A model generated the notes under the pieces. That model ran no database searches, was not told the DNA's origin, and saw only the letters and a program-made list of their open reading frames with translations. From Minisyncoccia bacterium (GTDB taxonomy: Bacteria > Patescibacteriota > Minisyncoccia > Phycocordibacterales > UBA918): 64,000 bases of DNA. The DNA is taken from positions 1,801 through 65,800 of the forward strand of contig JBGSJJ010000013.1 of the NCBI GenBank assembly GCA_041742075.1, given 5' to 3'. Positions 6,942 through 61,411 of this stretch are shown here, one piece after another. Each line of letters opens with the position of its first letter. The first letter of the stretch is position 1. Both the position numbers and the translations under genes were made by a program.

Positions 6942-7211
6942 GTCTTATCCCTTCGTTTGAGCGCCCATTGCGCCGTGCAGGATAGTACCTTACATTTTAA
7001 AAAAGTCCATAATTAGAGGTCCGTATAGTGAAAATATAGCTTTGTCTTTGACTGAGAGAATCACCTTGCACGGATAGGGCGGAGCTCCCACAAGACGCCA
7101 AGCGTCATTTCTCCTTGCGAAGTCGAAAATACTGAGCGTCGACATAAAGAAAAAGGCGTGGCCGAGGGGTGTTACCCTCGCCCACGCCATGGAACCGAAG
7201 TTCGCTCTGGA

Positions 7212-7997
7212 TCAGACTGCTGTCGCCAGATTGACGACGTTGATGCACTCTGCCTCGACCTTCTTGAGACGGCTTGCGCCCTTCTCAAGAAGACCCAGGA
7301 TGTAGCCTCCCTGGTTGGGGAGCTCCGTTGCCACCTGCGCGAGACCCTCTTTGGGTCCGAGCTGAAGCAGTGCGCGAGTCTCCGTCGGTGAGAAAATCGG
7401 CGCGAGGATGCGCTGACCTCCTACCAGGAAGATGCCAATCCGCTTCGACTCCGGCCGAGTCAGCACTTCCTTGGTCGAAGCGACGGCCGTGACCGCCGTG
7501 ACCGGAGCCACGGGGACGGAACGATTGGACTGTCCGCCTTCCTGCTCCAGCATGACCGGGGTCACTCTGGCGGAACGCTTGGGCTGTCCGCCTTTCTTCT
7601 CGACCACGAAGTGCTCGAGTGCCTCCTCCCACTCTCCCGATTCGGGATTCAGAGAGAAGAGGACGCAGGGCGTCCCTTCTTCCAAACACTCCCACTCAGA
7701 GCCGGAGACCGGAAGGCCCTTCCAGACCTTGCTGTCACTGTCCCGTACGTAGACCGGCTCGCGTGAACGAATCAGTTGCCGACGGATTTCACGGGCCGCT
7801 TTCTTGTCCGCGACCCGTTCTTCGCTGGCGCGCCGCTCTTCGAAGAGCTCAGTGGCCGATTTGGCCACCATGATGGACTCACGATAGAGCGAGCGCACCT
7901 TGGCGACTGGACCTCTCGGACCAATCAAGTCAATCACGAGCTCGTAACGCTCGCCGACGACCAGATCGAGTTCGGGAGGAATGCCCTTTTCGTGCAC
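7212..7997 (-). CDS. hypothetical protein (GC-rich; GTG start), in the same frame as the upstream cold-shock-domain ORF and separated from it only by TGA
   Basis: Long open frame with an internal approximate repeat (EKKGGQPKRSARVTP / EQEGGQSNRSVPVAP). It may be the C-terminal part of a disrupted or read-through gene. Confidence 0.4.
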   Translation of the reverse strand: MHEKGIPPELDLVVGERYELVIDLIGPRGPVAKVRSLYRESIMVAKSATELFEERRASEERVADKKAAREIRRQLIRSREPVYVRDSDSKVWKGLPVSGSEWECLEEGTPCVLFSLNPESGEWEEALEHFVVEKKGGQPKRSARVTPVMLEQEGGQSNRSVPVAPVTAVTAVASTKEVLTRPESKRIGIFLVGGQRILAPIFSPTETRALLQLGPKEGLAQVATELPNQGGYILGLLEKGASRLKKVEAECINVVNLATAV

Positions 7998-8033
7998 GAA
8001 GAGATCGCGTCCGTTCGAGCGACTGAAGAAGCC

Positions 8034-11357: not shown

Positions 11358-12059
11358 TATATAAAAAAGTAACGGCTGACAAACAGCCGTTACAAACACT
11401 GACCTAAAACTAACTATATAAGTTCCACTTAATAGCGTACCCCAAAAGAGAAAGTTGAATTAAAGCGTCACTGACATACTGAAATACTGCAATGACTTCT
11501 TCAGAATCAGAATAGGCTATATACCTACAGGGGTAACAAGAGAGATGGAGTATCTCATCCGTGGTCAGTCTGCGGACATGGACCACGATAGGTGCTGGAC
11601 CCATGAGTACATCGTACGCACAGGTGGACAGAAGCTTACGACGTGCCATCAACTTCCCCTCCTTGGTTTGAACTTTCCTACTCCAATTAGATACCCAATC
11701 GAAGCTTTATACAATACGCCTAGTGCGCGGACGAGATACAGGAAAACCGCTGCCATGAGGCAGCGGTTCAGGTGTCTATGGAGCTTGGTAGCACCACAGG
11801 TCAGGGTCTTCTGTGCGGGGTTGGTACCGCGCCCTTGTGGCTTGGATCACCTCCTTTCAGCTGGAGTGCAGGCTCGCCGCCATGAAGGCTTGAATCATAA
11901 AGTTGGTCATGACTGTCCCCGTCTGAAAGAATGGTCTAAAACTACCATCCATACGTATTAGACACCCGATTTCAAAATTTTACAACAGAGACGCCTGAAC
12001 AGGCGCCTCAAGTCTCTATACTTAAATACTAAGCATACACTGCTTGAAAAAGGTCTTTG

Positions 12060-12133
12060 TCCGCCCTCTTGGACTCGAACCAAGGACCACAGAGGTATAA
12101 GCTCTGTGCTCTAACCAACTGAGCTAAGGGCGG
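12060..12133 (-). tRNA. tRNA-Ile, anticodon UAU (reads AUA)
   Basis: On the minus strand, cloverleaf with acceptor CCGCCCT/AGGGCGG, U8, D-arm GCTC-AGTTGGTTA-GAGC, anticodon stem CAGAG/CTCTG with loop CTTATAC (anticodon TAT), T-arm CTTGG-TTCGAGT-CCAAG, discriminator A. No encoded CCA. Confidence 0.75.
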
Positions 12134-22515: not shown

Positions 22516-22909
22516 GGGGATGCTAGGCATCGACGGTTAGCCCCGGAAGTAGTGCGCAATGTCGAAAGTGAATGTGAATTCGTTAAAATACATTCAACAC
22601 TTACGTGCAAAGAATAGCGTAAAAAGCCCATACTTTTCGAAGTTGAGCTTCGCCCCTGCTGTAGCGTAAATAACGCTCGCAGTCAGCGACATCACTTCTC
22701 CTGACGTCTGATACGGAGGAGTTGGTGTAATAAACATCGGACTCTTAGCTACCGCTCCGCAGTAGTGATAGCTAGAATTTCTTACTGCTCGACAGTCTGG
22801 ACTTTGGTTTTCTTTTAATCCAGGCTGTTTAAACCCAAAGGAGGACTATACATTGTAGACCCACCGCTTTCACCTAATTCGGACGGGAGTTCAATTCTCC
22901 CCATCTCCA
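22516..22909 (+). ncRNA. ssrA: tmRNA (ssrA)
   Basis: 5-prime GGGGATGCTAGGCATCGACGG. 3-prime tRNA-like end GGGAG-TTCAATT-CTCCC then CATCTCC-A, which pairs with the 5-prime GGGGATG. Internal tag frame GCA AAG AAT ... GCG TAA gives AKNSVKSPYFSKLSFAPAVA. Lies about 1.1 kb downstream of smpB. Confidence 0.75.
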
Positions 22910-23121
22910 CGAGTACAAAAAACAGCTCACACATTTTTGTGTGGGCATTTTTTGTTCGTGGAGATGGGAGCAAGCAAACTACTTTGCTTGCGTGAGAATT
23001 GAACTAAGCATAGCGATGTGACTTTGTCACGAGTGAGCTCGGGGAGGAAGTTCTTAGTATTTTAAGAGTGGTACGAATTAAAATACTTAGAAACTTGACC
23101 CTTCATTCTCCCCATCTCCAC
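22895..23121. repeat. tmRNA 3-prime-end repeats: direct copy ttc(a)attctccccatctccac at 23101-23121 and inverted copy cgtggagatgggag at 22957-22970
   Basis: 16 of 16 nt are identical between 22895-22910 and 23106-23121. The pattern resembles an att core duplication left by an element integrated at ssrA. Confidence 0.6.
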
Positions 23122-23207
23122 CGACATATAAGTATGTAGAAATACATGGAACAACATAGAAGTTTACTCGTATGGGTAAGCTTTTTTGTTTTGGTATACT
23201 TAATTTA

Positions 23208-23513
23208 ATGCAAATTATTCTCCTTGATTCTGTTGAAACATTTTTTGGGTCACTAAACGCAAAAGAAATTGCCAAAATAATTCGAACAATTGAATTACTA
23301 GAAGAATTTGGTAATGATTTAGGAATGCCACACAGCAGACACATGTCTGATGGTCTACTGGAACTACGGATACGCGGAACTAGAGAAATTAGAATATTCT
23401 ACTGCTTCCATAAGAAACAGGCTGTTTTACTACATGCCTGTATCAAGAAAACCCAAAAGACACTCGATAAAGAACTAGGCAGAGCGCGAGACGCAAAAGC
23501 ACACTTGCAATAA
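23208..23513 (+). CDS. type II toxin, RelE/ParE superfamily (HigB / Gp49-like addiction-module killer protein)
   Basis: LELRIRGTREIRIFYCFHKKQAVLLHACIKKTQKT matches the Gp49/HigB-like toxin pattern. It precedes an XRE HTH gene. Confidence 0.55.
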   Translation: MQIILLDSVETFFGSLNAKEIAKIIRTIELLEEFGNDLGMPHSRHMSDGLLELRIRGTREIRIFYCFHKKQAVLLHACIKKTQKTLDKELGRARDAKAHLQ

Positions 23514-23539
23514 TATAACTTATAAGTTATATTTACTTT

Positions 23540-23815
23540 ATGAGTACTACATTCAAACAATTTAAAACCAAAACTCTCAAGGACCCAGTCGTCAAAACTG
23601 AGTACGAAGCGCTTGGAGCAGAGTATGGGGTAGTAAAAACTATTATCAAAGAACGTGTTAAGCGTGGCTGGTCTCAGACAGAACTGGCAGAAGCCATCGG
23701 TAGCCGCCAGCCAGTTATTTCTCGCCTGGAACGTGGTGACGGCAATCCTTCCCTGCAAACCCTCAGTCGCATTGCCAAGGCACTAGATTTATCCCTCAAG
23801 GTATCGATGCGGTAA
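23540..23815 (+). CDS. XRE-family helix-turn-helix protein (HigA-like antitoxin)
   Basis: WSQTELAEAIGSRQPVISRLERGDGNPSLQTLSRIAKAL is a canonical HTH_XRE. Confidence 0.7.
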   Translation: MSTTFKQFKTKTLKDPVVKTEYEALGAEYGVVKTIIKERVKRGWSQTELAEAIGSRQPVISRLERGDGNPSLQTLSRIAKALDLSLKVSMR

Positions 23816-23984: not shown

Positions 23985-24539
23985 CTACTCTAAGACTCTT
24001 TCAGTGAATTCCCACGGTTTCTCATTACTACTTGAAATTAAATAGGTGCAGTCTTCTCCTGCAAGATTGCAAGCATCAACTTTGAGCAAACTGTCTTCAG
24101 TCCATTCTACAACTCGGCCCCAGGTACGGTTATGGAGTATACCCCTGCCTGCTTCATATACCTCAACAAATGAATCCTCGAACTTACTTCCTTGCAAGGC
24201 AACGAACTTTTTGTCGGGAGAAATATATCCTTCGTGATACGAAACAACTTCAAAGTAATTCTCTATCGTTGAAGGGTTGTCTGATTCGGCGATTCTGACC
24301 CGGTAGTTTGTACTCAGTACTACGTATACACCTAGGTCACTTTCGCCATCCCCAATTTCTACACTATCTAGAGTAACCACTTCTTCACTCGGTACCGGTG
24401 TTTCATGATTGTCTGAATTGGTTTTGCCTTCTTCTGAAGTAATGGCTAGTTTACTTACTTCCTTATCCCTATAACTTATGTAGACAAGCAAAGCTGTGAG
24501 GGTTAAAACTACCACTGAGAGAGTGATGATTTTATTCAT
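23985..24539 (-). CDS. secreted hypothetical protein
   Basis: N-terminal signal/anchor, 184 aa, no recognisable domain. Confidence 0.4.
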   Translation of the reverse strand: MNKIITLSVVVLTLTALLVYISYRDKEVSKLAITSEEGKTNSDNHETPVPSEEVVTLDSVEIGDGESDLGVYVVLSTNYRVRIAESDNPSTIENYFEVVSYHEGYISPDKKFVALQGSKFEDSFVEVYEAGRGILHNRTWGRVVEWTEDSLLKVDACNLAGEDCTYLISSSNEKPWEFTERVLE

Positions 24540-24620: not shown

Positions 24621-25475
24621 TTAGTTTGTCAGAGCGGGGGTTGTCGTCGCCATTATCTCTGAGACAGTCGTTGTGCTAACTTCTATAATCATCGCATCAG
24701 CTCCCTCTGGTTCAGGTTTCACTTCGGCTGGCTTTTCAACTTCTGCACCAAGAATTCGCTCAAGCTCAATATCTTGTAGTGCATTTGCGATAGTGTCAAT
24801 TGCTTTAGCGATATCGCCTTCAGCGATACTTTCGCTAGCGCGAGTGAGATTCTTCTTCGTGTCATCGCGAAGCGTATCACTCATTTCGTTACCCTCTGCA
24901 TGAACAAGGACCTGTCCAAGGAAGTCACTAAGGAAAGCTTTTACTTCATCGTTAGTGGCATGCACAATGAACTGATCTATTCGGTTTGAGAAAATATTAG
25001 CAACTTCTCGGCGCTTCTCTTGTATAGCGTCAGCAACAATAACCATGTGTTCACTCCGCTCGGCCACCTCTTCTATCGTACGTAACCGTACTTGTAGGTT
25101 GTGGGTCATCCGTAGAGCGTCTGGCCTTGATATACCGACTGTTTCTTCAGCAGCCAGTAGTGCTACGACAGCATCTGAGTGTCCCCGGGTAGTGTCTACG
25201 AGTTTCCAAAGTATTGCTTCATCAACCGCTGAACGTTGACTTAATACTTTGGTTTCTTCAGCTCGTCTCGCTAGTAATGTGAGTTGATATTCACCCTGCG
25301 CAACAGGTGTTTGATAGAACATACCAACCCCCTTTTCAAGGCCGTTTATCTTAAGGGTATAGAGCGGACTACTCACCGAAGCGGTGAAAACAAAGCCGAG
25401 TAGTATGAGAAAAACTGCTAACGCAGATAGTGCCACAACGAGTGATTTATTTGATTTTATATTGTCTAAGTTCAT
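24621..25475 (-). CDS. membrane-anchored hypothetical protein
   Basis: TM anchor after MNLDNIKSNK, then a largely helical extracytoplasmic region. Confidence 0.4.
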   Translation of the reverse strand: MNLDNIKSNKSLVVALSALAVFLILLGFVFTASVSSPLYTLKINGLEKGVGMFYQTPVAQGEYQLTLLARRAEETKVLSQRSAVDEAILWKLVDTTRGHSDAVVALLAAEETVGISRPDALRMTHNLQVRLRTIEEVAERSEHMVIVADAIQEKRREVANIFSNRIDQFIVHATNDEVKAFLSDFLGQVLVHAEGNEMSDTLRDDTKKNLTRASESIAEGDIAKAIDTIANALQDIELERILGAEVEKPAEVKPEPEGADAMIIEVSTTTVSEIMATTTPALTN

Positions 25476-25517
25476 TATTCTATTGTACCTGAATACGCGA
25501 CAGACTGATAGGCTACA

Positions 25518-25555
25518 CAAAATGGGCGCCAAACTGCGTTTTGGCGCCCATTTTC
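25518..25555. terminator. long terminator hairpin (aaaatgggcgccaaa / tttggcgcccatttt)
   Basis: 15-bp perfect stem. Confidence 0.7.
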
Positions 25556-25569
25556 TCTCTACCTACAGC

Positions 25570-25713
25570 TTAGTTTTTGGTCGCAACCAAAGAAAAGCTC
25601 AGGGCAATCATGTCGTCAATAACGTTGTCTGCTAGATTTTTGAGAATACTTGAAATAATCAGTTTAGAAGATGTACGAAAAAACCGCGAAGGCAAGGCCT
25701 TCGCGGTAGTTGT
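25570..25713 (-). pseudogene. orphan 3-prime fragment of a yceI-like gene (no start codon)
   Basis: The minus frame reads ...ILKNLADNVIDDMIALSFSLVATKN*. This matches the C-terminus of the intact YceI-like gene at 30319-31041 (DDLADNVIDDMIALSFVLVAEKN*). It has no Met and is bounded upstream by TGA. Confidence 0.6.
25605..25635. repeat. 31-bp direct repeat, left copy (caatcatgtcgtcaataacgttgtctgctag)
   Basis: Identical to 30354-30384. Confidence 0.9.
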
Positions 25714-25734: not shown

Positions 25735-27141
25735 TCATGCTGCGAGTGCGCATGAGGTACCACGAGCACACTTCTCGGCAGCAGTCTTGCCATAGGATGT
25801 CAACACGACCGGCAGACCGAGCAGTCCACCGAGTCGATCAGCATAGGCTTCACCCCGCTCAGAGACTGGAGTGTAACTTGCTTCAGCCTTCCGTAAGACC
25901 TCACCGAGTAAGAGCTGGTGCGGCTTGTTCTCAGCGTCGAACTTCGGCCGGAGCGCAGTTACGTAGTCAACGTCGGAGCGCGAGCGTGGCTCGATGATAA
26001 GTGCGGCCACTTCAGTGTTGGTGAGTGCACCGGCCGGTACTCGATAACGAGTTGCAAGCATCGGTGACGGCACCGTATCGAGACGATCAAGGTGTGTGAC
26101 CACAAGCGAGTCAACTCCTTCACTCGCCATAAGCGCATAGCGCGTAAGTGGAACATCGAACCAGCCGACCCGAAACCCTTCCTGCCACGTGCTGTAGCGA
26201 TTGTGCTCATCAGGAAGCTGTGTCGTCAGTGACATGTCTTCGGTTGGAAATGGTCCGGCGCCGTGACGAGTGCTGTATGCGCGCACCACGCCGTAGCGAG
26301 AAACCGGCTTGTCATAGCCGATATCCGCGAGGAGCGTGTTGGCATTCTTCGCCGTCGTCGTGCTCCAGGTGGTGTACGGATGGAAGCCGTGCCGCTCATC
26401 AAGCAGCACCCCTTGTGCCCCTTCGAAGATGAGTGGCTTGGTTTCGGCCAGCCGCTTGAGTGTCCGCACGGAAGCGATAGTGAGACGCTTGCCGATTTCG
26501 TAGAGAGCGGAAGCAATCAGCTCCGGCGCCCGGTAGTCGTAGAGGTGCTGTAATTCCTCACCGAGGTATCCGTACGATCTGAGCTCGTTGAAGTACGGCG
26601 AGAACTCGACATACTTCAGTTCCTGAAGAGTCTTGAGACGCACGAGAAGCGTCGAGCGCGAGCGTAGATCAGCAACCCGAATCGTGAGCTCGGGATGGGC
26701 GATGGAGTCCGACATCGTTTCGCCGATACCCATGCCACAGCTACCGTGACGACCATGACCCCGGAGCATTTCCCGCAGACGATTGCCGGCTTTCTGGAAC
26801 GGCGTCACGACGATCGCGTCGCCGTCAATCGCGATTCGAGCGAACGGTTCCGTGACACCGAGCTGCTCGAGACGTCGTGCCTCCTCCTTGAGGGCGAACG
26901 GGTCAACAAGCATGAAACGTGAGAGGAACGTCCGCACACCCAAAACGAAGGTGCCGCTCCCAAACTGGGAGAAGGTGTGGTGACGGCCGGTTGCAGTGTG
27001 CACGTTGTGCGCGGCCTGTGCACCGCCGTTGTAACGAACAACGACCGCGCCTTCCATTTGGCGAGCTAGATAGTCAACAGTCGTACCCTTGCCCGCGTCG
27101 CCAAACCCGAGGTCGGTCACGATAGTAGCTCTTTGTTCCAT
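25735..27141 (-). CDS. adenylosuccinate synthetase (PurA) family protein
   Basis: P-loop [17 protein letters not shown]...[12 protein letters not shown], then [37 protein letters not shown] and [15 protein letters not shown]. These match PurA motifs ([55 protein letters not shown]). RBS AAGGAA. Confidence 0.7.
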   Translation of the reverse strand: [468 protein letters not shown]

Positions 27142-27217
27142 AACGTGATTCCTTGTGTGAGAGAAAAGAAAAGCGGTGGCGCGAAGCGCCACCGCAGAGG
27201 TGTTCGGTGTGTTCAGC

Positions 27218-28231
27218 TCAGAGCCGACTCACACCACCTGAGGCACGTCGCTTCGCGAGTGTGCCGCCAGTGCGAGCAGCTGTTCCGGCTGCCACCGACT
27301 TGTTGCCGATAGGCACGAGCGCGTTCTTGACGGCGCTCGCGGCTGCACCAGAGAGTCCGATGTCAGCCACGACACGGTCGGCGTCGTACGAGCTCTCGAG
27401 CATGTGGATGATGCCAGCGATGATCTCGCAGACCAGGCTCGAGTCCTCGACCATGACGAGTCGCTCTCCGAGGAGCTGCCGCCAGCGGTCGTGGATGTCC
27501 ATGCGATCAGGATAGCTGCCATCGAGTGCGAACAGGTGGAAGATGTTCCACTGCTCGCTCGCCCGAGACAGAAGCGACTCGACCGTTTCGTCACCCTCGA
27601 CGTCGACGCCGAAGATCTTCTGCACGTCGGCTCCCGTAACGGTCGGCCACGGCATCTCGTCGCCCATCGTGAAGAGGTAGCCCTTCTTGCCGCGCTTCTC
27701 GAACGCATCGCTCGCGGTGTGGTTGGCGGCGAAGTAGTAGGCGAGCCCGTAGGACTCCTTCACCTGTCCGCCGCCGCCCTCGAGGATGATGGCGCGCAGC
27801 TGATCGTCGAAGCGGTTGTCCGATTCGAACTGACCGACCTGGAACGGATAGCGGTCGCACGTCGAGTCGCCGACGGCGCCGACCAGCACCTGTGGGTCCG
27901 AGAGACCAGCCTTGTCGATGATCACGTCCATCAAGCTCGTGAGCTTCTCCTGCAAGACGCGCGGGATGCGCCCCATCGAACCAGTGACATCGAACAGCAT
28001 GGCGATCGGAATCGAGTTCGGGTGTTCGTCGCTGTCGCGGCTCTCGCGCACGCCGTAGTGGTAGCGCGCCGGGTCAGGGTTCTTGAAGCCCTTCGGGTCG
28101 AGCGAGGTATGAATGCCGCTCGCCTTGCCGGACCGAACCTTGACCGTATAGTCGAAGTCGTCGATACCACTTGCGCGGCGCGACGTAGCTGCAGCACTGT
28201 AGATGCTGCTATCCCAAGTACCACCACCCAT
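27218..28231 (-). CDS. von Willebrand factor A (vWA) domain protein
   Basis: MIDAS motif IAMLFDVTGSMG (DxSGS). RBS AGGAGG. Confidence 0.65.
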   Translation of the reverse strand: MGGGTWDSSIYSAAATSRRASGIDDFDYTVKVRSGKASGIHTSLDPKGFKNPDPARYHYGVRESRDSDEHPNSIPIAMLFDVTGSMGRIPRVLQEKLTSLMDVIIDKAGLSDPQVLVGAVGDSTCDRYPFQVGQFESDNRFDDQLRAIILEGGGGQVKESYGLAYYFAANHTASDAFEKRGKKGYLFTMGDEMPWPTVTGADVQKIFGVDVEGDETVESLLSRASEQWNIFHLFALDGSYPDRMDIHDRWRQLLGERLVMVEDSSLVCEIIAGIIHMLESSYDADRVVADIGLSGAAASAVKNALVPIGNKSVAAGTAARTGGTLAKRRASGGVSRL

Positions 28232-28264
28232 GATGTCCTCCTTTGGGTTTGGTGTAGTTTCGAT

Positions 28265-29386
28265 TCACGTGTTCGGCATAATAAGTGGCCGATACGTTCG
28301 TCCCCAGTGGCCTCGCACCGCATCAGTGAACTGACGCAGTACAAGTGCCCCATCGTGTGCACGTCGCTTCGGGTCTGCCACGAGGCAGCCCTTCACCACT
28401 TGCACGATGTCACTCGGAACCTGGCTCGGGAATCGATCGCGAGCCACGTCGCCGCCGGTGAGATAGAGAAACGCCTTGCCGGCCATGTAGAGGTCGGTTT
28501 GGTGCGTCGGTACTTCACGGGCGAATACTTCAGGCGGGTACCAGTCTCGGTAGCGGTCGATGACCGTTGTTAACCGAGCCTTCCTGACGTGTGGTTCGAT
28601 GACCGCATGCGCCCAACCCAAGTGGAGGGGCTCATGGGTCTTCGGATGCACCAGCACGTGCTCCGGCACTAGTGCGCCATTGACGACACCGAGCATCGCT
28701 GCCGCCAGAGTCTGACCGAGTACCCGTCGCCAGACCCAGGCGGCTGCCTCTTGTGGCAAGCCATCCTGGTAGGCAGTACGGATATCCTTGAGCGAAACGA
28801 AACCTGGTCGCTCACGGTAGACATTGGCGCGGTAGCGAATGTTGCCCGCTTCAAGCACCAAAAAAGTGTCAAGAAGTTCAGGCAGAAACGGTGCCAAGAC
28901 CGAAGCCTTGCCGGTCGCCCGTGACAGCACCGCCACCTCATGTTCGAGGTATTGGTTCTGGCTCGGCTCAGCCGCTACCTTCACCACAACAGCCGTGCCA
29001 TCTGCAGCGACCCCGCGATAGAGAAGCGAAAAGTCACCCTCTCTAAACGGTGTCGCGGCGCAGGTATAGCTCATCGTCGAGCCAGTGAAGCTGATAGTCG
29101 GTCCAGTTGTAGAACCAGCCGAAGCAAACGGCTCTTCGTACCGACCGGCGGCCAGTGCCGCTTTTGCACGTTCGTGCAGGTCGATGATACGTGTGAGCAC
29201 ATCGCCAGCCAGCGCTTGTTCAGGACCTGCTCGGTCGGGGTGCGAGGTGCGAGCAAGGTAGACGAACTTCTTCTTGAGTTGCCGTTCCTGCTCGCGCTTG
29301 GTACCCAGAGGGAGCGAACCAAAGACGTCACTGTAGCGAGTGGCGCCCTTAAGCTGTGAGTCGAAAGCCGCCAGTGCGCTCTGCAT
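28265..29386 (-). CDS. J-domain (DnaJ-like HPD motif) fused to a protein-kinase-like domain
   Basis: N-terminal LKKKFVYLARTSHPDRAG is a J-domain helix II-III with HPD. Downstream come VVVKVAAEP (VAIK-like) and a GALVPEHVLVHP catalytic-loop-like segment. RBS AAGGAG. Confidence 0.55.
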   Translation of the reverse strand: MQSALAAFDSQLKGATRYSDVFGSLPLGTKREQERQLKKKFVYLARTSHPDRAGPEQALAGDVLTRIIDLHERAKAALAAGRYEEPFASAGSTTGPTISFTGSTMSYTCAATPFREGDFSLLYRGVAADGTAVVVKVAAEPSQNQYLEHEVAVLSRATGKASVLAPFLPELLDTFLVLEAGNIRYRANVYRERPGFVSLKDIRTAYQDGLPQEAAAWVWRRVLGQTLAAAMLGVVNGALVPEHVLVHPKTHEPLHLGWAHAVIEPHVRKARLTTVIDRYRDWYPPEVFAREVPTHQTDLYMAGKAFLYLTGGDVARDRFPSQVPSDIVQVVKGCLVADPKRRAHDGALVLRQFTDAVRGHWGRTYRPLIMPNT

Positions 29387-29516
29387 TGTTTTGTACTCCT
29401 TCTGTCAAAGAACGTGTTGGAGTGGCTGTACCAACTCCTTCCTTTGTGTACTTCTTACACTAAGATATACCTATGCTTAATTAGTCTCAAGTGTACACTA
29501 AGTTATGACACAGATA

Positions 29517-29549
29517 TGTCCTTATTGTCAAATATACAATAAGGACATT
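29517..29549. promoter_or_regulatory. perfect palindrome atgtccttattg-N9-caataaggacat between the NrtR-like gene and the kinase-vWA-PurA operon
   Basis: 12-bp arms overlapping the stop of the NrtR-like gene. No T-run. Candidate operator and/or terminator. Confidence 0.4.
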
Positions 29550-30219
29550 ATGCGATGAGCGGTATCTCAGTTACGGTACTTCCCTTAAAGCGATACAGAG
29601 CTGCTGGTCGATTCTGTACCCCACTTTGCATGTCCCCAGTCTCTTCTAGAATATCGAGTGCGAGTATTTTTTTGCGAAAATTACGCTTATCAAATGTCTC
29701 GGCTCGCACAACTTCGTAGATTGATTGCAGTTCAGTGAGAGTAAATTGTTTTGGTAGTAGTTGTCTAGCGATAGTGGTGTAGAGCAATTTGCCAGCTAGT
29801 CTCGTGTGAGCGCTCGTGAGCATATCGTTATGATCGTACGCAAGTGTACCAACCTTCTTAATTGGCACCCACTTTGCACTGTCATGCGTATACCTTTCAG
29901 CGGTACTAAATGGCACCAGGCCGAGGTACGCAATTGCGACCGAGCGGCTACGCGTATCACGAGTAACGTCGGTAAAGGTGTAAAGTTGCTCAAGGTACAC
30001 ACGCTCAATGTTAACCTTCTCCTTCAAGTGGCGCGCGAGTGCTTGTTCAGCATTTTCTTCTGGTCGCATAACACCCCCGGGGAAACCAGACATTCCTTTG
30101 TAGTGATTGGTGACGGTTTCAACTGGCCGCAGTAGTGTCCATAGCATTCCGTTTCCTACAGCAAACAGCACAGCGTCTACCGCAGCTATCGCAAATCGAA
30201 ATGGTGGACTTTGAGTCAT
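29548..30219 (-). CDS. Nudix-domain transcriptional regulator, NrtR-like (Nudix N-terminal domain plus C-terminal winged helix)
   Basis: Degenerate Nudix box GFPGGVMRPEENAEQALARHLKEKVNI. C-terminal FTLTELQSIYEVVRAETFDKRNFRKKILALDILEETGDMQSGVQNRPAALYRF is typical of the NrtR DNA-binding domain. Confidence 0.55.
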   Translation of the reverse strand: MTQSPPFRFAIAAVDAVLFAVGNGMLWTLLRPVETVTNHYKGMSGFPGGVMRPEENAEQALARHLKEKVNIERVYLEQLYTFTDVTRDTRSRSVAIAYLGLVPFSTAERYTHDSAKWVPIKKVGTLAYDHNDMLTSAHTRLAGKLLYTTIARQLLPKQFTLTELQSIYEVVRAETFDKRNFRKKILALDILEETGDMQSGVQNRPAALYRFKGSTVTEIPLIA

Positions 30220-30318
30220 AGCTTACTTACTGTACAAAATACACTATTATAGACTATCTGTCGAGTACAAAAGGCACCACACAAAGTGTAGTGCCTTTTG
30301 TGTATAGACTTTGAGCGA

Positions 30319-42817: not shown

Positions 42818-45103
42818 CTAGACGTACCACTCGCTCCCGTACTTGATTTCGAGCGACATGATTTGTCCGTTCTTGAAGACAGCGCCGGTTGTTGCCGTCC
42901 AGTCTGACCCGGTGATCGGACCTCTGAAGTAGTGTCCGTAGGCTCCTTTGGCGGTACCGACACGCCAGACATTGAGAAGCTTCTCGCCGGTATGGCCGTG
43001 ACCCACGATGTACTGCATCTTGTTGCCGTAAACCGTGAACGCTCCGAGACTCCGCGTATTGTTTCCCTTCGGCGCAACATCGCCATGTGAGGACAAACAG
43101 ACGCGGTACTTACCGGTCGTCTTCGCGTAGCGTTCGTCTTGACGACCAAGCGCCGTCAACCACGGATACCGTCCGTTAAACAAGACTTCCAGCGCTTCTG
43201 GCGAGACAGCTTTCCGTTTCTCACGGCTTGTTTTGGCCTCCTCGACCCGCCGTGTCGTTTCTTCTGCCATCAGGTAGCAGAGCTTGCTACCGAAGGCGTA
43301 GTTGCGAGAGTCTTCGCGCCAGAGGCACTTCTGAGCCCATTCCGTGAGCCACGCCGGATGGTTCGCAGCGACAATCACAATCTCAGCGTTCGGGAGGATT
43401 TTGTGGTGTTCGACCAACCTCTTCTCAAACGCATCGACTTCTTCTTCCGCCAAGTCAAACCCCAGACCAGCCAGGGCCGCACTCCGACTCATCTGCTTGA
43501 GCCAGAACGGGCAAGCTGGCGAGTCCGTATCGAGGCCATCGTGACGATACACTTCGTCCGGCTTCAGGGTTGGCATAATGCCGTGCTTGCCCCAGAGCGC
43601 TTTCGCAATCTCTGGGTCAGTTGAGGCGTCATGCCAATCCGGTTCAGCCACCGCCACAATGTCGTTCGGCCGATGTTCACTGCCATCGGCAGTATACAGC
43701 CGTGCGCCACCGTGTTTGGGGTCAATGTCGTACACCTCACCCGTCGCCTCATCAAGCATGATGAGTGGACGAGCGAACCACTTACGCTTACCTTTGAAGC
43801 TAATCACCCAAGCAGCAATCTCAACGTCGTTTTGTGTCACGACGCCTCGCGTGCTCTCATGACCGAGCGCATCGACGTTCAAGACCAGGCGAGTAGCCGT
43901 ACCTGCCGTCATGATGTGACGGGTTCCATCTTCACCCTGCAAAGGCAGATGCTTGAACTCGATATTGGTCCCGGCGATGATGCGCGAAAGACCCGACTTC
44001 ATACGCGCTACCCGACCCGAAAGTTTGGTGTAGAGGGTGGGAAGCAAGAACGAACTCACATCGAGAAGCAGTCGACGTTCTTCATAGACGAAGTCCTCAA
44101 AGAGCATAGAGTCTTCGAGTTCCGGCGCGAAGTTGCTCTCCAAGCGACCATCATGCGTTTTGATTGGACCAAAGCGAAGCGGGAGTCCAACAAACGTGTA
44201 GCCAAGTTCATCAGCAATCTTCTTAAACGTTTGGACTGCTGGGATGAAGGAGGCACCAATCTGCGCCGACATGACGACCAAACCTTTGGCCTGTCGCAGT
44301 TGCTTGCGAGAAACCCGGAATCGCTCGATCTGCTCGAGCGCGGCCGGGTGCATGGGAACAATTCGTCCCGTCGTCGGATGCCTGCGACTCAGACGCACAA
44401 GCTGGCGTTCGAACTCAGGATTCTTTTTCCGATAGGAGTCGTACTTACTCCGTAAACGGTCGATACCCTTGAGCGTCAGCATTTCGCCAAGCTCATGCTT
44501 CATGGCCTCGATGAGGTCATGTCCCGAGGTAAGTTTCTTGTTGTTCCAGACCCGAGCGAATTTGGCAAACTGACGGACTTTCTTCGGCACTTCTTGTTCT
44601 TTAGGCTTCTGACCGCCCCACAAGCCAACTTCCTCACGATGCTTGGCGATGAAGTTGCTGAGCATCGAAATAGTGACTTGTGGAAAATTGCCACGCTTCG
44701 GGTCACGCAGTACTTCGAGTAATCGGGTTTTGAGCCGTGCGAGATCATTTTTCTTATAATACCGCCGTGACTCTTCGTAGGCCTGCTTGATGATACGCAC
44801 GTGCACTTCGTTCCAAATACCGGCCGTACCAGCCACATCGTTGGCAGGAATCGAGAGTGTGAACGTGAGATGCTTCGGGTCGGTAATTGGTTCCGGTATG
44901 CCATCCGGAAAAAGCGTACGCCGACGTTGGTTGACTGCGTTTGCAGATAGCCTAAGTCGGTGACCGAGACGCTTGAGCTCTTCATTAAGATCGCGAGCTA
45001 TCTCAGTGAGACCATGTCCGAAACGAGTCCGCTCACTGATGAACGTATTCATCTCGAATGAGAGGCCGCTCTTTACCTTGGCCGCATTTTTAAGCTTACT
45101 CAT
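42818..45103 (-). CDS. large hypothetical protein (761 aa) on a GC-rich segment
   Basis: Long uninterrupted ORF with sensible amino-acid composition, whereas the antisense ORFs are Arg-rich artefacts. A GHGHTG motif near the C-terminus. No confident family assignment. Confidence 0.5.
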   Translation of the reverse strand: MSKLKNAAKVKSGLSFEMNTFISERTRFGHGLTEIARDLNEELKRLGHRLRLSANAVNQRRRTLFPDGIPEPITDPKHLTFTLSIPANDVAGTAGIWNEVHVRIIKQAYEESRRYYKKNDLARLKTRLLEVLRDPKRGNFPQVTISMLSNFIAKHREEVGLWGGQKPKEQEVPKKVRQFAKFARVWNNKKLTSGHDLIEAMKHELGEMLTLKGIDRLRSKYDSYRKKNPEFERQLVRLSRRHPTTGRIVPMHPAALEQIERFRVSRKQLRQAKGLVVMSAQIGASFIPAVQTFKKIADELGYTFVGLPLRFGPIKTHDGRLESNFAPELEDSMLFEDFVYEERRLLLDVSSFLLPTLYTKLSGRVARMKSGLSRIIAGTNIEFKHLPLQGEDGTRHIMTAGTATRLVLNVDALGHESTRGVVTQNDVEIAAWVISFKGKRKWFARPLIMLDEATGEVYDIDPKHGGARLYTADGSEHRPNDIVAVAEPDWHDASTDPEIAKALWGKHGIMPTLKPDEVYRHDGLDTDSPACPFWLKQMSRSAALAGLGFDLAEEEVDAFEKRLVEHHKILPNAEIVIVAANHPAWLTEWAQKCLWREDSRNYAFGSKLCYLMAEETTRRVEEAKTSREKRKAVSPEALEVLFNGRYPWLTALGRQDERYAKTTGKYRVCLSSHGDVAPKGNNTRSLGAFTVYGNKMQYIVGHGHTGEKLLNVWRVGTAKGAYGHYFRGPITGSDWTATTGAVFKNGQIMSLEIKYGSEWYV

Positions 45104-57633: not shown

Positions 57634-58016
57634 GTTTTTTGTCTTATGGGTGGGACAGTATCATGTAGAAACCATGACTTGTCCCCTAATAATCCGACCA
57701 AAACTGGTGGTTTTGGTCTTCGGCGTATACACAAACGAGCGCCTTCCGAGTTAAAACAATAGTTTTATTGCTCGGCGCGTCTCACTCACAACAGATTGTT
57801 TAGAATCAGGAGAGGTTTTGCGTATCTCGCTTCGGGGGCAATAGTACCAGAATACGGAGAAATAACAAGGTCTTACTGCGCTGGAGTAGAGCATCACTCC
57901 ACCTGACGTATCTTCATAGTTTTATATGCTTCATAGTTGAAGTAAGTATAAGAAAAGCCCCGGCACATAATGCGCCGGAGCTGAGACTCACCGAGATGAG
58001 CAAGGAACCTGAAGAA

Positions 58017-59114
58017 CTAGAGGTTCGAGAGCGAGCCGATGATGCGCTCCATCACCAGCGCGCTGGGCATCGGCATCACCTTGTTGATGGAGGCGGGGAT
58101 GCCGGTCACCGTGAGCACGGTTGGGTCGGATTCCACACCGACGAAGCCGGAACGAAACCCATGTTGGCTCCAAGCAATGGCCTGGATGCGCGGATCTCGA
58201 AACGCTTCAGTGAGTCGTTCGCACTCGGGCTTGAGCACGATGAGCGGGTGAGAGGAAAAGATGGTTGGTTCTGGGTACAGGATGTTTATCTGCTCCTTGA
58301 TGACCGTCTGATACTCAGGATGCTTAAGGATGAACTCCGGCAACTGACTCTCGTAGCCGACGATCATCGGCCGAGCGCCCATTCCTTGGTTGAGGAAGTT
58401 CTCGAAGATATCCCCCGAACCCTCTTCCATGAAACCCATGGAGCGAAAGTAGGCGACGAGCTGCGGAAGGACGTTGTCCACCGTCGTTTCGTCGATGACC
58501 TCGCCGTTGTTCAGCATGCCGGCGAGAAGTGCCGCCCACATGTTGCCCGAGTTCGACTTCCTCGGGTCGCTGGAGAAGACCTTGATCGAACCGTAGAGGT
58601 CGAGACCGAGGGATTCCCATTTCTCCTTTGCCGCCGCGAGTTTGATGAGCTCTTGTGGCTTGATGATATAGTGGGTGTTCTCCCGCTCTTCAACAATCCC
58701 TGCCTTCGTGAGCGCGGCGGTAACCGGCGCCCATGTGTAGAAGACGATGGGACTGTTGAAGATGACCTGGTCAGAGATGACGGATTTGCCACTCCTGCGT
58801 GCCAATTCCACCGCCACTTGGTTGCTCGGCCAGATGCAGTGCTGGTCGGTCGTGTTGTCGGTTGTCGACATCGCGATCGAACCGCGTCGCGTGCCGTTGA
58901 GTTGGATTTTGTAGTCCTCGTCGAGGATGGCGAGAACCTCCGGGTTGTTCAGAAACCCCTCTTTCTCGCCGCCATAGTAGAGGTTAAGCGTGAGCGGAGC
59001 GAGTCGCTCGGGGACCTTGCGCTTGAGGCTATCGAAGTCGACCATCGTCAGTATAAGAACGACGACTGCGACCACGATCAGCACTGCGAGGCCCATAAGT
59101 TTCCTCAGGTTCAT
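58017..59114 (-). CDS. membrane-anchored solute-binding-protein-like protein
   Basis: N-terminal TM helix, then a roughly 330-aa periplasmic-binding-protein-like domain. Confidence 0.4.
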   Translation of the reverse strand: MNLRKLMGLAVLIVVAVVVLILTMVDFDSLKRKVPERLAPLTLNLYYGGEKEGFLNNPEVLAILDEDYKIQLNGTRRGSIAMSTTDNTTDQHCIWPSNQVAVELARRSGKSVISDQVIFNSPIVFYTWAPVTAALTKAGIVEERENTHYIIKPQELIKLAAAKEKWESLGLDLYGSIKVFSSDPRKSNSGNMWAALLAGMLNNGEVIDETTVDNVLPQLVAYFRSMGFMEEGSGDIFENFLNQGMGARPMIVGYESQLPEFILKHPEYQTVIKEQINILYPEPTIFSSHPLIVLKPECERLTEAFRDPRIQAIAWSQHGFRSGFVGVESDPTVLTVTGIPASINKVMPMPSALVMERIIGSLSNL

Positions 59115-59725
59115 CGTTCGTATCTCCTTTTGTCATCAATCAGCTCGCCCGCAACATCAGCGGTGCGAGTGAGTTGTTCCAGGTTGGTTTCGAGGCACTC
59201 ATCGCGCATTTGCCGAATGCGAGTCCGGAAGGTATCAATGATGCGCCGTCGAACCGCGTCGAGTTTGATCACGGTGTCTGTACCCCGACTATGCCGCCAA
59301 AGACGGACGTACTCGGTAGAAACCGTGGGTACATCGGCGAAATCGACGATGCGGGTTTTCACAATCCGTATCCCTCGGGGATACTCGTTGCAAAAACGAA
59401 CAACCGCGTAGAGGTCTTCGGCCATTTCGGCGAATACGGGCTGCATCGTCGGGTCGCCGTCCTCGGCGGACAGTTTCTTAAGACCATCTGCGATGGTCTG
59501 TAGGTTTGCGAGCAACGCTTTGAAGCGGTCGCGTCGCATACCAGCATCCCATAGAAATTCAAGATTCGCTGGCGGCTTCACATCGATGATGACCGCTACT
59601 GCCAAGAAGGCAATAACAGCCAGAATCAGTGCGAGCCACCAAACCAGCTGCACCGGCAGAAATAGGACCAAGAAGATCACAACTCCGACCGCTGCAGCGA
59701 TGAGCTGTCGCATGGTTTCTGTCAT
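59111..59725 (-). CDS. 2-TM membrane protein with cytoplasmic helical domain (XpaC-like architecture)
   Basis: Two N-terminal TM helices then about 140 aa predicted helical. The architecture resembles the XpaC family. Homology not verified. Confidence 0.35.
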   Translation of the reverse strand: MTETMRQLIAAAVGVVIFLVLFLPVQLVWWLALILAVIAFLAVAVIIDVKPPANLEFLWDAGMRRDRFKALLANLQTIADGLKKLSAEDGDPTMQPVFAEMAEDLYAVVRFCNEYPRGIRIVKTRIVDFADVPTVSTEYVRLWRHSRGTDTVIKLDAVRRRIIDTFRTRIRQMRDECLETNLEQLTRTADVAGELIDDKRRYER

Positions 59726-59779
59726 AGCTCTAACTCCGCGTGAGGGGAAGGGTGCGCGGCCTCAGGCCGCACTTAGCGT

Positions 59780-61411
59780 TTAGTTGTACCCCTTGACACT
59801 GCGAAGCGTCGCCGGGAGGTCACCCTTGCTGTCGAAGTAGCGTCCAACCGTCAGTGTGGTCAGCTGCTGCAGCTCGGTAGTATCGGCACCGCCGAAGGCG
59901 ATGGCGTTGATTGGCACATCCGACATGAACGAGTACCCCGAAAGGAATCGTTCAAAGTCTTGCGCTTTCATGCCAGCATTCGTTTCGCCATCAGTCATCG
60001 CGTTGATAGCGACGAGGTAGTTGTCGAGCCGGCCTGAGGCTGCGTACGGAGCGATTTCGCGCACCGCTTGAGCCAAGCCTTCATACAACGCTGTTGCAGA
60101 TCCCAGATCGATGGCTTGGGTGTTATTGAGCAGACGAGCGACCTTAGTCGGCTCGTTGCCCTCAACCACCCACACGTCTTGCACAGAGCCCGCGAACGTG
60201 ACGACGATAGTGACGTCGTTCGGTCCGAGTTGGAGCAGGTTGGCAGCGGCAGTTTCGGGATCGAGAAGGTTTTCCATCGCCTTCTTTAGCCCCTCGATGC
60301 CACGTCCAGACATACTGCTCGACGCGTCGAGCACCCATGCTGTCAATGACGGTTTGCGAAGACCGGTCTGGTACAGGTTGAGTGCGGTCTCAATGACCTC
60401 CTGAGTAGGCACCGGCACCGACGCAATGATGCGCTTGGTGTCGATACCCCAGTCGGGGTTGAAGACCGTCGGATCGACCGTGCCAGCGTTAAGGCCGATA
60501 AGGCCCGTACGCCGACCAGTCGCCTTGATGGCGTCTTGTGTCTCAGGCGTAAGCAAGTGAGCCTGAAGCTCGAGGAAGAGTGTTTCCTTTGCTTCGATCC
60601 CATGATCCACGTAGCCGAGCGGGCTATCAGAGACCATGATGGCGTCGCGTGGGTAGACTGCACAGAGCGGTTCGTGGCCACGGTTGATGAGACCGGGCAC
60701 GAACTTCCCTTTCTCGTTCCAGCCGAGATTGGCTTCGATGATCATGCTCTCGTAGTTGAACATAGCATCGAAACGATGCGGGTTCTCGACGACGAGAGTG
60801 CGCAACCAGCCCGAGCTTCCTGCGCTCCGGTCAACGGTCGCAAGGAAGCGCTTCAGATCAGCCTGCACTTGCCGATCCTCGAGTTGCTCAAGAGTCAGTA
60901 CATCTGGACTGCCTGAGAGGGCATAGAGCGCTCCGATGTAGGCCGAAGCGCCGCTATTGGACTGCGTCGCCGAAGTCATCGTGAGCGTGAATGCCCCTTG
61001 GTCCGCGGCCGCGATGATGTCGGCCATGGTGACGTCGGTATCGCTTATCCAGCCGAGTCGGTTGGCGATTGAGCAGTTAAGACCGAGCACAACCGGCGAA
61101 CGCATGATCGACGCCGTGTGCGCGACCGTATTGTTGCGGTCGCCGAGGGCGATCCAAAGCTGGTTCGCCGGCCACACCGCGTCGTACGCACAGCCGGTCT
61201 CGGCCTGCAGGCAGCGGGCGATGTCCACACTACCGAGATAGTCGATGTCAATCGTGATACCTTTCTCTTCAGCGAACGCCGTGATGATTGGCTCGAGGCC
61301 TTCGTTCTCGGATCCCGAGACGATGGTGAATGTTCGTTGCGGTTGTGCCTCATCGCAGGCGGCGAGGGCACAGAGCCCAGCGACTAGGCCACAGAGTACG
61401 TGTTTGGACAT
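59780..61411 (-). CDS. lipoprotein with N-terminal binding-protein-like region and C-terminal vWA domain
   Basis: Lipobox LCALAAC. MIDAS motif WVLDASSSMSG. The start was moved to MSKHVLCG at 61411. Confidence 0.55.
   Translation of the reverse strand: MSKHVLCGLVAGLCALAACDEAQPQRTFTIVSGSENEGLEPIITAFAEEKGITIDIDYLGSVDIARCLQAETGCAYDAVWPANQLWIALGDRNNTVAHTASIMRSPVVLGLNCSIANRLGWISDTDVTMADIIAAADQGAFTLTMTSATQSNSGASAYIGALYALSGSPDVLTLEQLEDRQVQADLKRFLATVDRSAGSSGWLRTLVVENPHRFDAMFNYESMIIEANLGWNEKGKFVPGLINRGHEPLCAVYPRDAIMVSDSPLGYVDHGIEAKETLFLELQAHLLTPETQDAIKATGRRTGLIGLNAGTVDPTVFNPDWGIDTKRIIASVPVPTQEVIETALNLYQTGLRKPSLTAWVLDASSSMSGRGIEGLKKAMENLLDPETAAANLLQLGPNDVTIVVTFAGSVQDVWVVEGNEPTKVARLLNNTQAIDLGSATALYEGLAQAVREIAPYAASGRLDNYLVAINAMTDGETNAGMKAQDFERFLSGYSFMSDVPINAIAFGGADTTELQQLTTLTVGRYFDSKGDLPATLRSVKGYN

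Follow-up and report, generated by a model that had tools for sequence, protein, structure and literature searches.

A mobile gene module pairing a vWA protein with a PurA-like enzyme, probably linked to NAD/ADP-ribose metabolism, in Patescibacteria, Actinobacteria, Planctomycetota and phages

The 64,000 bp stretch analysed here (contig JBGSJJ010000013.1 of a Minisyncoccia bacterium, referred to as the window) carries a gene module that is mobile, widely distributed and conserved across phyla and in phages. In the window it consists of four open reading frames (ORFs), all on the minus strand. In the direction of transcription these are nrtR (29548–30219), for a Nudix-related transcriptional regulator of 223 amino acids (aa) with a degenerate Nudix box; the gene of a predicted J-domain pseudokinase (28265–29386; 373 aa, J-domain at approximately residues 30–85 and kinase fold at approximately 97–361); the gene of a predicted von Willebrand factor A (vWA) protein with an intact metal ion-dependent adhesion site (MIDAS; 27218–28231, 337 aa); and the gene of a PurA-like protein resembling a guanosine triphosphate (GTP)-dependent ligase (25735–27141, 468 aa). 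The last three are called the trio below. The best explanation overall, which we hold at a probability of roughly 55%, is a mobile module linked to nicotinamide adenine dinucleotide (NAD) and ADP-ribose and built on a GTP-dependent ligase with new substrates. The four co-directional genes had been listed at these positions in an initial annotation made from the sequence, and the ORFs are indeed present; the NAD/ADP-ribose link and the vWA/PurA-like pair as core of the module go beyond that annotation.

Loci from GTDB species genomes, metagenomes and IMG/VR viral contigs were scanned with purpose-built hidden Markov models; related loci holding module homologues carry L-numbers (L003, L008 etc.). 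Among the 74 loci from GTDB species genomes, a vWA gene followed by the PurA-like gene was found in all 74, the J-pseudokinase in 54, NrtR/Nudix in 67 and all four genes in 48. The corresponding numbers for the 23 metagenome loci were 22, 22, 14 and 14. On the 53 viral loci the pair was present in 50, the J-pseudokinase in 35 and NrtR/Nudix in 4. Bacterial carriers include Nocardia, Micromonospora, Amycolatopsis, Saccharothrix, Actinoplanes, Streptomyces, metagenome-assembled genomes of Planctomycetota, Saccharibacteria and other Patescibacteria; the viral contigs with the module had a G + C content of 30–71% and were up to 437 kb in size. In Micromonospora loci the module genes overlap by 4 nt. 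Because the pseudokinase is missing from some bacterial loci (in Nocardia, Micromonospora and Planctomycetota), we regard the vWA and PurA-like pair as the near-obligate core of the module and the J-pseudokinase as a frequent accessory, whose gene usually comes before the pair. The bacterial module normally adjoins a gene of the NrtR family.

The vWA and PurA-like proteins matched identical phage records, namely 202 of Mycobacterium phages (cluster C1, Bixzunavirus), 10 of Rhizobium phages and 6 of Vibrio phages, so that approximately 220 isolated phages contain the pair; the cluster C1 mycobacteriophages carry the full trio. In phage I3 these are the 'kinase' gp270, a homologue of the J-pseudokinase with its HPD and HGA motifs, the vWA protein gp271, the small protein gp272 and the PurA-like gp273. 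Small ORFs of 77–135 aa such as gp272 (phrog_3263, unknown function) are often located between the vWA and PurA-like genes in phage and some bacterial versions (L092 7020–7358, which is gp272 of phage I3; L135 6975–7208; several IMG/VR loci). They are absent from the window and may encode an extra subunit. The vWA family is large: its candidates fell into over 6,500 clusters at 90% identity, and 770 (E<=1e-30) or 1,495 (E<=1e-10) clusters were counted at 50% identity. The J-pseudokinase family appeared small, with 40 hits in a word-indexed search.

The assignment of the PurA-like protein to the adenylosuccinate synthetase family was borne out by a match to PF00709 of 221.7 bits (E 1.9e-65), above the gathering score. 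The protein stayed below the cut-offs of the purA equivalogs (NF002223, 176.8 against 402; TIGR00184, 149.4 against 395.6) and of the PurZ model (NF038379, 47.7 bits against 300), which argues that it is neither a housekeeping PurA nor a PurZ; its PHROGs group, the PurZ-named phrog_1211, is a lumped group. Residues were mapped in Escherichia coli PurA numbering over 84 homologues and 3 phage homologues. G12, D13, K16, G17, H41, Q224 and D333 are kept in 82–84 of the 84 members, T239 is kept as well, and the P-loop GD-x-GKG is retained. The phage copies also keep the GTP and phosphotransfer residues, except for D333N in the Vibrio phage. Since the P-loop, Asp13, Lys16, His41, Gln224 and the guanine-specificity residue Asp333 are kept, the enzyme is likely to phosphorylate a substrate oxygen with GTP, a step that displacement would follow.

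The remainder of the active site has changed. The L-aspartate ligands T300, T301, R303 and R305 are all lost, and the 5'-phosphate ligands of inosine monophosphate (IMP), N38, T129 and R143, are changed. The window protein has N38Q, T129C, R143H, S240W, V273H, T300W, T301Q, R305F and K331H and lacks R303; the family-wide pattern over the 84 members is N38Q, G40A, T129C (or V), S240W, V273H, T300W/Y, T301Q, R305F/W and K331H with R303 deleted, position 143 being His or variable. The phage copies likewise have H273 and Q301 and lack R303 and R305. In addition, the C-terminal 80–90 aa differ from PurA. Of the PurA motifs that had been recorded as retained, the P-loop therefore stands, whereas residues of the IMP-loop and the aspartate site are replaced or deleted, and ligation of aspartate to a purine nucleotide is not expected with the aspartate pocket remodelled in this way. 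The family thus shares with PurA (EC 6.3.4.4) and phage PurZ the PF00709 fold and the GTP and catalytic residues, but differs in its aspartate pocket and IMP-phosphate ligands, in the family-specific S240W and V273H, and in that its gene is always paired with a vWA gene. Judged from these residues, the enzyme probably catalyses a new reaction.

A housekeeping adenylosuccinate synthetase with unrelated neighbours is extremely improbable. The strong PF00709 match would fit it, as would the position of this gene as the only PurA homologue within the 64-kb window of a bacterium from the candidate phyla radiation (CPR), whose genomes are reduced. Such an enzyme would not be expected to score 177 bits against a 402-bit equivalog cut-off, to have lost all aspartate ligands, to share its substitutions with phage copies, or to be adjacent to a vWA gene in 74/74 genomes, large-genome Actinobacteria included. 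An unlikely alternative starts from the residues that are kept: D13, H41, Q224, G127 and T239 act in PurA on the 6-oxopurine and the ribose-phosphate, and only the carboxylate-binding residues are lost. The enzyme would then join ammonia or a neutral amine to a 6-oxopurine nucleotide (IMP, guanosine monophosphate, inosine triphosphate (ITP) or deoxy-ITP), giving adenine nucleotides without PurB; in phages, whose carriage of the module fits this idea, it could reverse ATP-to-ITP deamination by host defences. However, the IMP 5'-phosphate ligands N38, T129 and R143 are changed too, and neither the control by NrtR nor the neighbouring genes described below would be explained.

The gene context of the module points to NAD and ADP-ribose. 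In L008, genes for NAMPT, NMNAT/Nudix, an ADP-ribosylglycohydrolase (ARG) and NrtR are divergent from the trio; in L009, nadA lies between nrtR and the trio; and in L003, prs adjoins the module. The viral locus L174 contains NrtR, vWA, NMNAT/Nudix, NAMPT, PurA-like and J-pseudokinase genes, and L135 contains NrtR, NAMPT, a radical-SAM protein, vWA, PurA-like and J-pseudokinase. NADAR is located beside the module in L153 and in a Vibrio phage, and NMNAT/Nudix and a PRTase-like gene are located upstream of it in a Rhizobium phage. In unbiased neighbour scans no family recurred more than NUDIX and NAMPT, and a single PARP domain was seen. NAMPT matched 104 Mycobacterium phages, of which the example shown is a 74-kb phage that does not belong to cluster C1. 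With NAD-salvage and ADP-ribose genes recurrently adjoining or interleaved with the module in both bacteria and large phages, a tie to NAD/ADP-ribose metabolism is the best reading of these loci. Another divergent Adenylsucc_synt-domain protein has independently been reported to accompany a DarT-like ADP-ribosyltransferase in 60% of neighbourhoods, together with AAA and Nudix genes in Pseudomonas aeruginosa (bioRxiv 10.1101/2024.07.30.605764). Several CPR metagenome loci have a large ORF of 990–1170 aa directly upstream of nrtR (L095 392–3904, without a Pfam match; L128 1062–4034; L127 998–4021).

The regulator fits this context. NUDIX (PF00293) and NrtR_WHD (PF21906) domains were found (Pfam E 1e-24), as were end-to-end PDB matches to BtAraR (5bs6, 2e-32) and Shewanella NrtR (3gz5, 1e-26), in agreement with its annotation as an NrtR-type Nudix regulator. 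Its Nudix box reads RHLKEKVNI where REUxEExGU is expected, and it scores 126.8, below the NtrR equivalog cut-off of 400. The putative operator is a 19-bp palindrome, TAGTGTA-N5-TACACTA; a first pattern with an N7 spacer gave nothing relevant, N5 being the correct spacing. Three such NrtR-type operators are located in the 161-bp spacer between nrtR and the pseudokinase gene (29444–29462, 29482–29500 and 29523–29541), two of them bracketing a promoter-like site (TTGAGA-17-TATCTT, 29490–29462). A fourth, TACTGTACAAAATACACTA (30228–30246, one mismatch), lies upstream of nrtR and overlaps a promoter-like site at 30264–30236 found in a promoter scan. These are the four best matches in the window, and the observed count was reached in 0/100 shuffles. 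The motif was also found upstream of the trio in L003, L008, L009, L011 and L012, and before nadA in L009. In the window and related CPR loci, two or three predicted operators cover the trio promoter. A perfect palindrome just past the nrtR stop codon (29519–29547, minus strand; 10-bp arms GTCCTTATTG-N9-CAATAAGGAC) includes the third operator-like site as well as TTGACA, and could act as a terminator for nrtR, as a further operator or in both ways.

This arrangement resembles the NrtR-controlled NAD operons described by Rodionov et al. 2008 (PMC2330246) in the Nudix plus winged-helix repressor with its degenerate Nudix box, in the palindromic operators over its own and target promoters, and in the presence of nadA, nadV and nadM-type genes within one regulon in related loci. 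It differs in that the main local target is the uncharacterised trio, which that founding paper does not mention; the word 'adenylosuccinate' is nowhere in its text. The closest published idea is that of the ARG-centric Nudix-TF systems with a vWA protein (Iyer et al. 2022, PMC9503650), with which only the regulator and the vWA protein are in common. Those systems share the Nudix-HTH repressor, the vWA protein, the ADP-ribose theme and an occurrence in Actinobacteria and Planctomycetes, and are predicted to act against viral ADP-ribosylation, the vWA protein being a peptide-binding 'chaperone' (PMC9503650, section 3.8). They lack the PurA-like enzyme and the J-pseudokinase; conversely, the window contains no ADP-ribosylglycohydrolase or phosphatase gene, ARG was seen only in L008, and our module is common in phages as well. 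The phage NAD-reconstitution pathways NARP1, NARP2 and NARP3 are alike in being phage-borne, in standing near NAMPT and NMNAT/Nudix, and in plausibly serving where host NAD is destroyed, but their defining enzymes (Adps/Namat, NadV/NMNAT and PnuC/NadR) are not in the trio. NARP3, which consists of PnuC and NadR, is unrelated to the module.

The same context would suit a one-step rebuilding of NAD+ with the vWA partner, which we consider rather unlikely. By analogy with PurA chemistry, a phosphate from GTP would be placed on the anomeric oxygen of ADP-ribose and then displaced by nicotinamide; otherwise nicotinic acid mononucleotide or nicotinic acid adenine dinucleotide would be amidated through an acyl-phosphate. 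A pyridine ring could stack, or ammonia be enclosed, in a pocket of W240, H273, W/Y300, Q301 and F/W305, and phages carry the module in a way similar to NARP1, NARP2 and NARP3. If true, it would be a new route of NAD reconstitution, directed in phages against NAD-depleting immunity and placed in bacteria under NrtR control. However, the idea is purely one of chemical analogy, the frequent NAMPT and NMNAT already rebuild NAD, which would make a second route partly redundant, and the need for the vWA partner and the J-pseudokinase stays unexplained.

Several points weigh against the link of the module to NAD and ADP-ribose. NAD-related neighbours other than NrtR are present in a minority of the loci, and most flanks are heterogeneous. 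Phage neighbourhoods also hold the RNA-repair genes PNK, RtcB, Rnl1, HAD_SAK_2 and TROVE, so a role in RNA or nucleotide repair is also possible. The best PDB match of the window regulator is the arabinose-responsive AraR, and in L010 the trio occurs without NrtR and without an operator. Finally, we infer the roles of the vWA protein and the J-pseudokinase only from domain identity. The RNA-repair genes, which often lie near phage copies of the module (L092 3991–4512; L094 9288–13071; IMG/VR loci), also include one for an Rv2179c-like exoribonuclease; TROVE is TROVE/Ro60.

For the vWA protein and the J-pseudokinase, structure prediction was needed, as sequence searches gave nothing above threshold. 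The 337-aa vWA protein had no Pfam hit, VWA included, and no PDB sequence hit beyond chance. Its AlphaFold2 model (predicted local distance difference test (pLDDT) 84) matched integrin I-domains and vWF A3 in Foldseek. In the motif D81-x-T83-x-S85...T188...D191, T188 is nearly invariant and the other four residues (D81, T83, S85 and D191) are fully so. The fold and the motif of the model are those of a vWA protein with an intact MIDAS, as had been annotated. The N-terminus M1-G2-x-G4 is invariant and the C-terminal tail is disordered. Conservation within the module is highest for this protein (vWA > PurA-like > NrtR > J-pseudokinase), which has an identity of 69–73% within the CPR and 40–43% to Actinobacteria and phages and falls in phrog_2971, of unknown function. 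Two long homologues, P0257 (581 aa) and P0224 (595 aa), matched the profile in two stretches in a search of representatives; the break in P0257, at approximately residues 173–250, has a weak Hint/intein hit (E 2.4e-4), and this possible intein would lie within the conserved core, near T188/D191 of the MIDAS.

The invariant N-terminus, and the fact that the vWA protein is more conserved than the enzyme, would fit a modification of proteins. A nucleotide would be joined to the N-terminal Gly of the vWA protein after removal of Met, or to a client presented by the MIDAS and DnaK; or the trio would repair ADP-ribosylated proteins or nucleic acids. A peptide amine instead of free aspartate would agree with the absence of the two carboxylate-binding arginines, ARG and NADAR occur as neighbours, and a chaperone role has been suggested for vWA proteins of the Nudix-TF/ARG systems that counter ADP-ribosylation (PMC9503650). 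PurA-fold enzymes are, however, without precedent on proteins and the ARG and NADAR neighbours are rare, which makes this quite an unlikely explanation.

The 373-aa protein gave nothing above threshold in Pfam, NCBIfam or PADLOC, and its PDB sequence matches were at chance level. Its DnaJ Pfam score of 12.5 bits fails the gathering cut-off of 27.8. A sub-threshold DnaJ match was nevertheless the commonest one in the family (30/36 members, best E 4.8e-4), HPD at 49–51 is nearly invariant among 36 relatives, and hhalign aligned the family profile with E. coli DnaJ 15–68 (helix II-HPD-helix III) with a probability of 80.6% (E 1.3e-5). Pkinase matched 8/36 members (best E 4.7e-8), and the relatives show kinase subdomain landmarks as well. 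In the AlphaFold2 model (pLDDT 92), the top PDB match in Foldseek was the DnaJ-PKA chimera 4wb7, followed by AAK1, PknA and PknB (E ~1e-10). The β3 Lys (K136) and αC Glu (E150) are invariant. In the catalytic loop H-G-A-x-V-P-x-H, Ala238 replaces the HRD Asp and His243 the catalytic-loop Asn; at the DFG position the CPR clade has G257-W-A, and the members from Actinobacteria and phages, which lack the HRD Asp too, have D-W-C. The J-domain first annotated is thus supported by the family matches, the profile alignment and the model, although the window protein itself is below the Pfam threshold. Of the kinase-like domain, the fold is supported by AlphaFold2 and Foldseek; the Pfam threshold was failed, and the catalytic and DFG Asp are absent. 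As both are absent in the CPR clade, the model is that of a J-domain fused to a pseudokinase. It probably still binds nucleotide, since K136 and E150 are invariant. In the PHROGs database it is labelled 'kinase' (phrog_3043). The human oncogenic DnaJ-PKA fusion is alike in having the kinase fold directly after a J-domain. It is, however, an artificial product of a chromosomal deletion in somatic cells and no homologue, whereas the module protein is a natural, conserved pseudokinase.

A vWA protein next to a kinase had suggested a vWA/kinase signalling triad, which is unlikely with a degenerate kinase. Neither the window nor the set of domains that recur around related loci includes PP2C or another phosphatase, and the TerY-P kinase triad was rejected for both reasons. 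A MoxR-vWA pair was likewise rejected, because no MoxR AAA+ ATPase was found in the window or among those recurrent neighbour domains. The module resembles MoxR AAA+/vWA pairs in joining a MIDAS vWA protein with a partner that is driven by ATP or binds nucleotides; the role of MoxR as ATPase could here fall to DnaK through the J-domain. Unlike MoxR-vWA pairs and TerY-P triads, the module has no AAA+ ATPase and no PP2C, and its kinase domain lacks the catalytic residues.

The spacers between the four genes had been given as 25–33 bp and a four-gene operon had been proposed. The actual distances are 161 nt (nrtR to J-pseudokinase), 33 nt (J-pseudokinase to vWA, with the ribosome-binding site AAAGGAGGA) and 76 nt (vWA to PurA-like). 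With the operator motif and the promoter-like site in the first spacer, the trio is predicted to be a separate, NrtR-operated unit and nrtR its own transcription unit, so that the genes do not form a tight four-gene operon; as a functional unit they are conserved, co-occurring across phyla and phages. The PurA-like gene starts at the ATG at 27141, preceded by the ribosome-binding site AAGGAA, and the same 468-aa call was made on an independent assembly. A GTG start at 27192 was dropped, as it falls within a terminator-like hairpin with T-run (27163–27195, minus strand) between the vWA stop codon and the PurA-like start. The hairpin itself (27195–27173) has a 10-bp stem with 9 G-C pairs, and the T-run follows it. 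A G-C-rich hairpin with a T-run, of unrelated sequence, is present at this place in 7/7 CPR loci (the window, L003 and L008–L012), which suggests conserved internal attenuation. It is probably an internal terminator or attenuator, in which case expression of the PurA-like enzyme would hinge on read-through. A second terminator-like hairpin (25683–25707, minus strand) closes the transcription unit of the trio.

The G + C content of the trio (59.9%; 58.6–62.9% for the individual genes) was higher than that of the rest of the window (48.0%), in line with its initial description as GC-rich. The G + C content at third codon positions of the vWA gene was 0.80; nrtR was host-like (47.8%). In 8/8 CPR loci (the window, L003 and L008–L013) the trio lies 3–16 percentage points above its flanks, which is not the case in Actinobacteria or phages. 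The window and L003 have a common synteny of XFP, AckA, dockerin, NrtR and trio at a protein identity of only 46–69%, so either the high G + C content of the trio has persisted or the cassette has been replaced repeatedly. Closest homologues of the window proteins were found in Saccharibacteria, Kaiserbacteria and Kerfeldbacteria (CPR/Patescibacteria). Other stretches of raised G + C content (57–59%) in the window, at 7001–8000, 43001–44000 and 58001–61000, are not rRNA. The only Rfam matches in the window were one tRNA and a transfer-messenger RNA (tmRNA). The former is a tRNA-Ile with the anticodon TAT (12059–12133, minus strand). This anticodon is uncommon in bacteria, where AUA is usually decoded by lysidine-modified CAT.

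The tmRNA gene (22516–22912, plus strand) is located 2.8 kb past the end of the module. Approximately 190 nt downstream of it, at 23105–23121, is a 17-nt copy of its 3' end, ATTCTCCCCATCTCCAC, which resembles an att-type scar of an integrated or excised element. Adjoining this scar is a pair of a Gp49/HigB-like toxin (PF05973) and an HTH_3 antitoxin (23172–23815, plus strand), and two hypothetical proteins without a Pfam match (23985–24539 and 24621–25532, minus strand) lie between this pair and the module. A recent island insertion at the tmRNA gene is an unlikely source of the module, because L003 has the XFP-AckA-dockerin-NrtR-trio synteny without it.

Both the G + C island in all eight CPR loci and the nearby tmRNA gene with its toxin-antitoxin pair could speak for a host anti-phage defence or abortive infection system, induced by ADP-ribose, of the vWA/kinase 'conflict system' type; the patchy cross-phylum distribution and a Nudix-TF control like that of the predicted ARG-centric conflict systems would agree with this. 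We nevertheless consider it very unlikely, and the original suggestion of a conflict system is weakened by the carriage of the trio in hundreds of phage genomes. Approximately 200 lytic mycobacteriophages carry the trio, the pair is found on 50/53 large viral contigs, and NAD-salvage genes are interspersed with those of the module. The module has no effector of the nuclease, protease, pore or NADase kind, and its kinase is catalytically dead. PADLOC-DB v2 gave no match for the vWA or PurA-like protein and only the chance-level MAD6 (E 0.064) for the J-pseudokinase; the regulator matched the Nudix candidate PDC-S07.

ADP-ribose is a breakdown product of NAD. In the mechanism we propose for an NAD/ADP-ribose-linked module, NrtR would repress the genes until an effector, most likely ADP-ribose, builds up. 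The PurA-like enzyme would then use GTP to phosphorylate an oxygen of a nucleotide-like substrate, and a nucleophile other than aspartate would displace the phosphate. The vWA protein would be an obligate partner subunit, whose MIDAS metal may hold the substrate phosphate in place of the lost inter-subunit Arg143, or may bind a target protein; the loss of Arg143 together with the extreme conservation of the vWA protein makes such a composite site plausible. The J-domain pseudokinase would recruit host DnaK to the complex. Overall, the module would protect the NAD/adenylate pool or restore it, or reverse damage linked to ADP-ribose, in NAD-centred stress or phage-host conflict. A more specific version is put forward tentatively, as possible rather than probable: the vWA and PurA-fold proteins would form a hitherto unknown two-subunit, GTP-driven NAD/ADP-ribose enzyme, coupled to Hsp70 by the J-pseudokinase, used by large phages against NAD-depleting immunity and kept in CPR bacteria and Actinobacteria under an ADP-ribose-sensing NrtR. 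Such an enzyme could act on breakdown products, turning them directly into NAD+ or adenine nucleotides, or on a protein, to which it would add a nucleotide or from which it would remove one.

We found no description of the module, and none linking a vWA protein with a PurA-like enzyme, in the open-access literature, and together with PADLOC this agrees with the initial statement that no system of such composition has been described. Within open-access text, to which the literature search was limited, we regard the module as a system of a new kind, assembled from known folds.

NAD depletion and ADP-ribosylation are central to the conflict between phages and bacteria, and three phage pathways for NAD reconstitution have reportedly been described in recent years. 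The module is a fourth, less obvious gene set that bears the same genomic signature, with approximately 770–1500 clusters at 50% identity and with carriers among hundreds of sequenced phages, CPR bacteria, Actinobacteria and Planctomycetota. As cluster C1 mycobacteriophages and Mycobacterium smegmatis are genetically tractable, it can be tested directly. The obligate pairing of such an enzyme with a MIDAS protein and a J-domain pseudokinase is without precedent; if confirmed, the module would add a new case in which Hsp70 is recruited to an enzyme of metabolism or repair.

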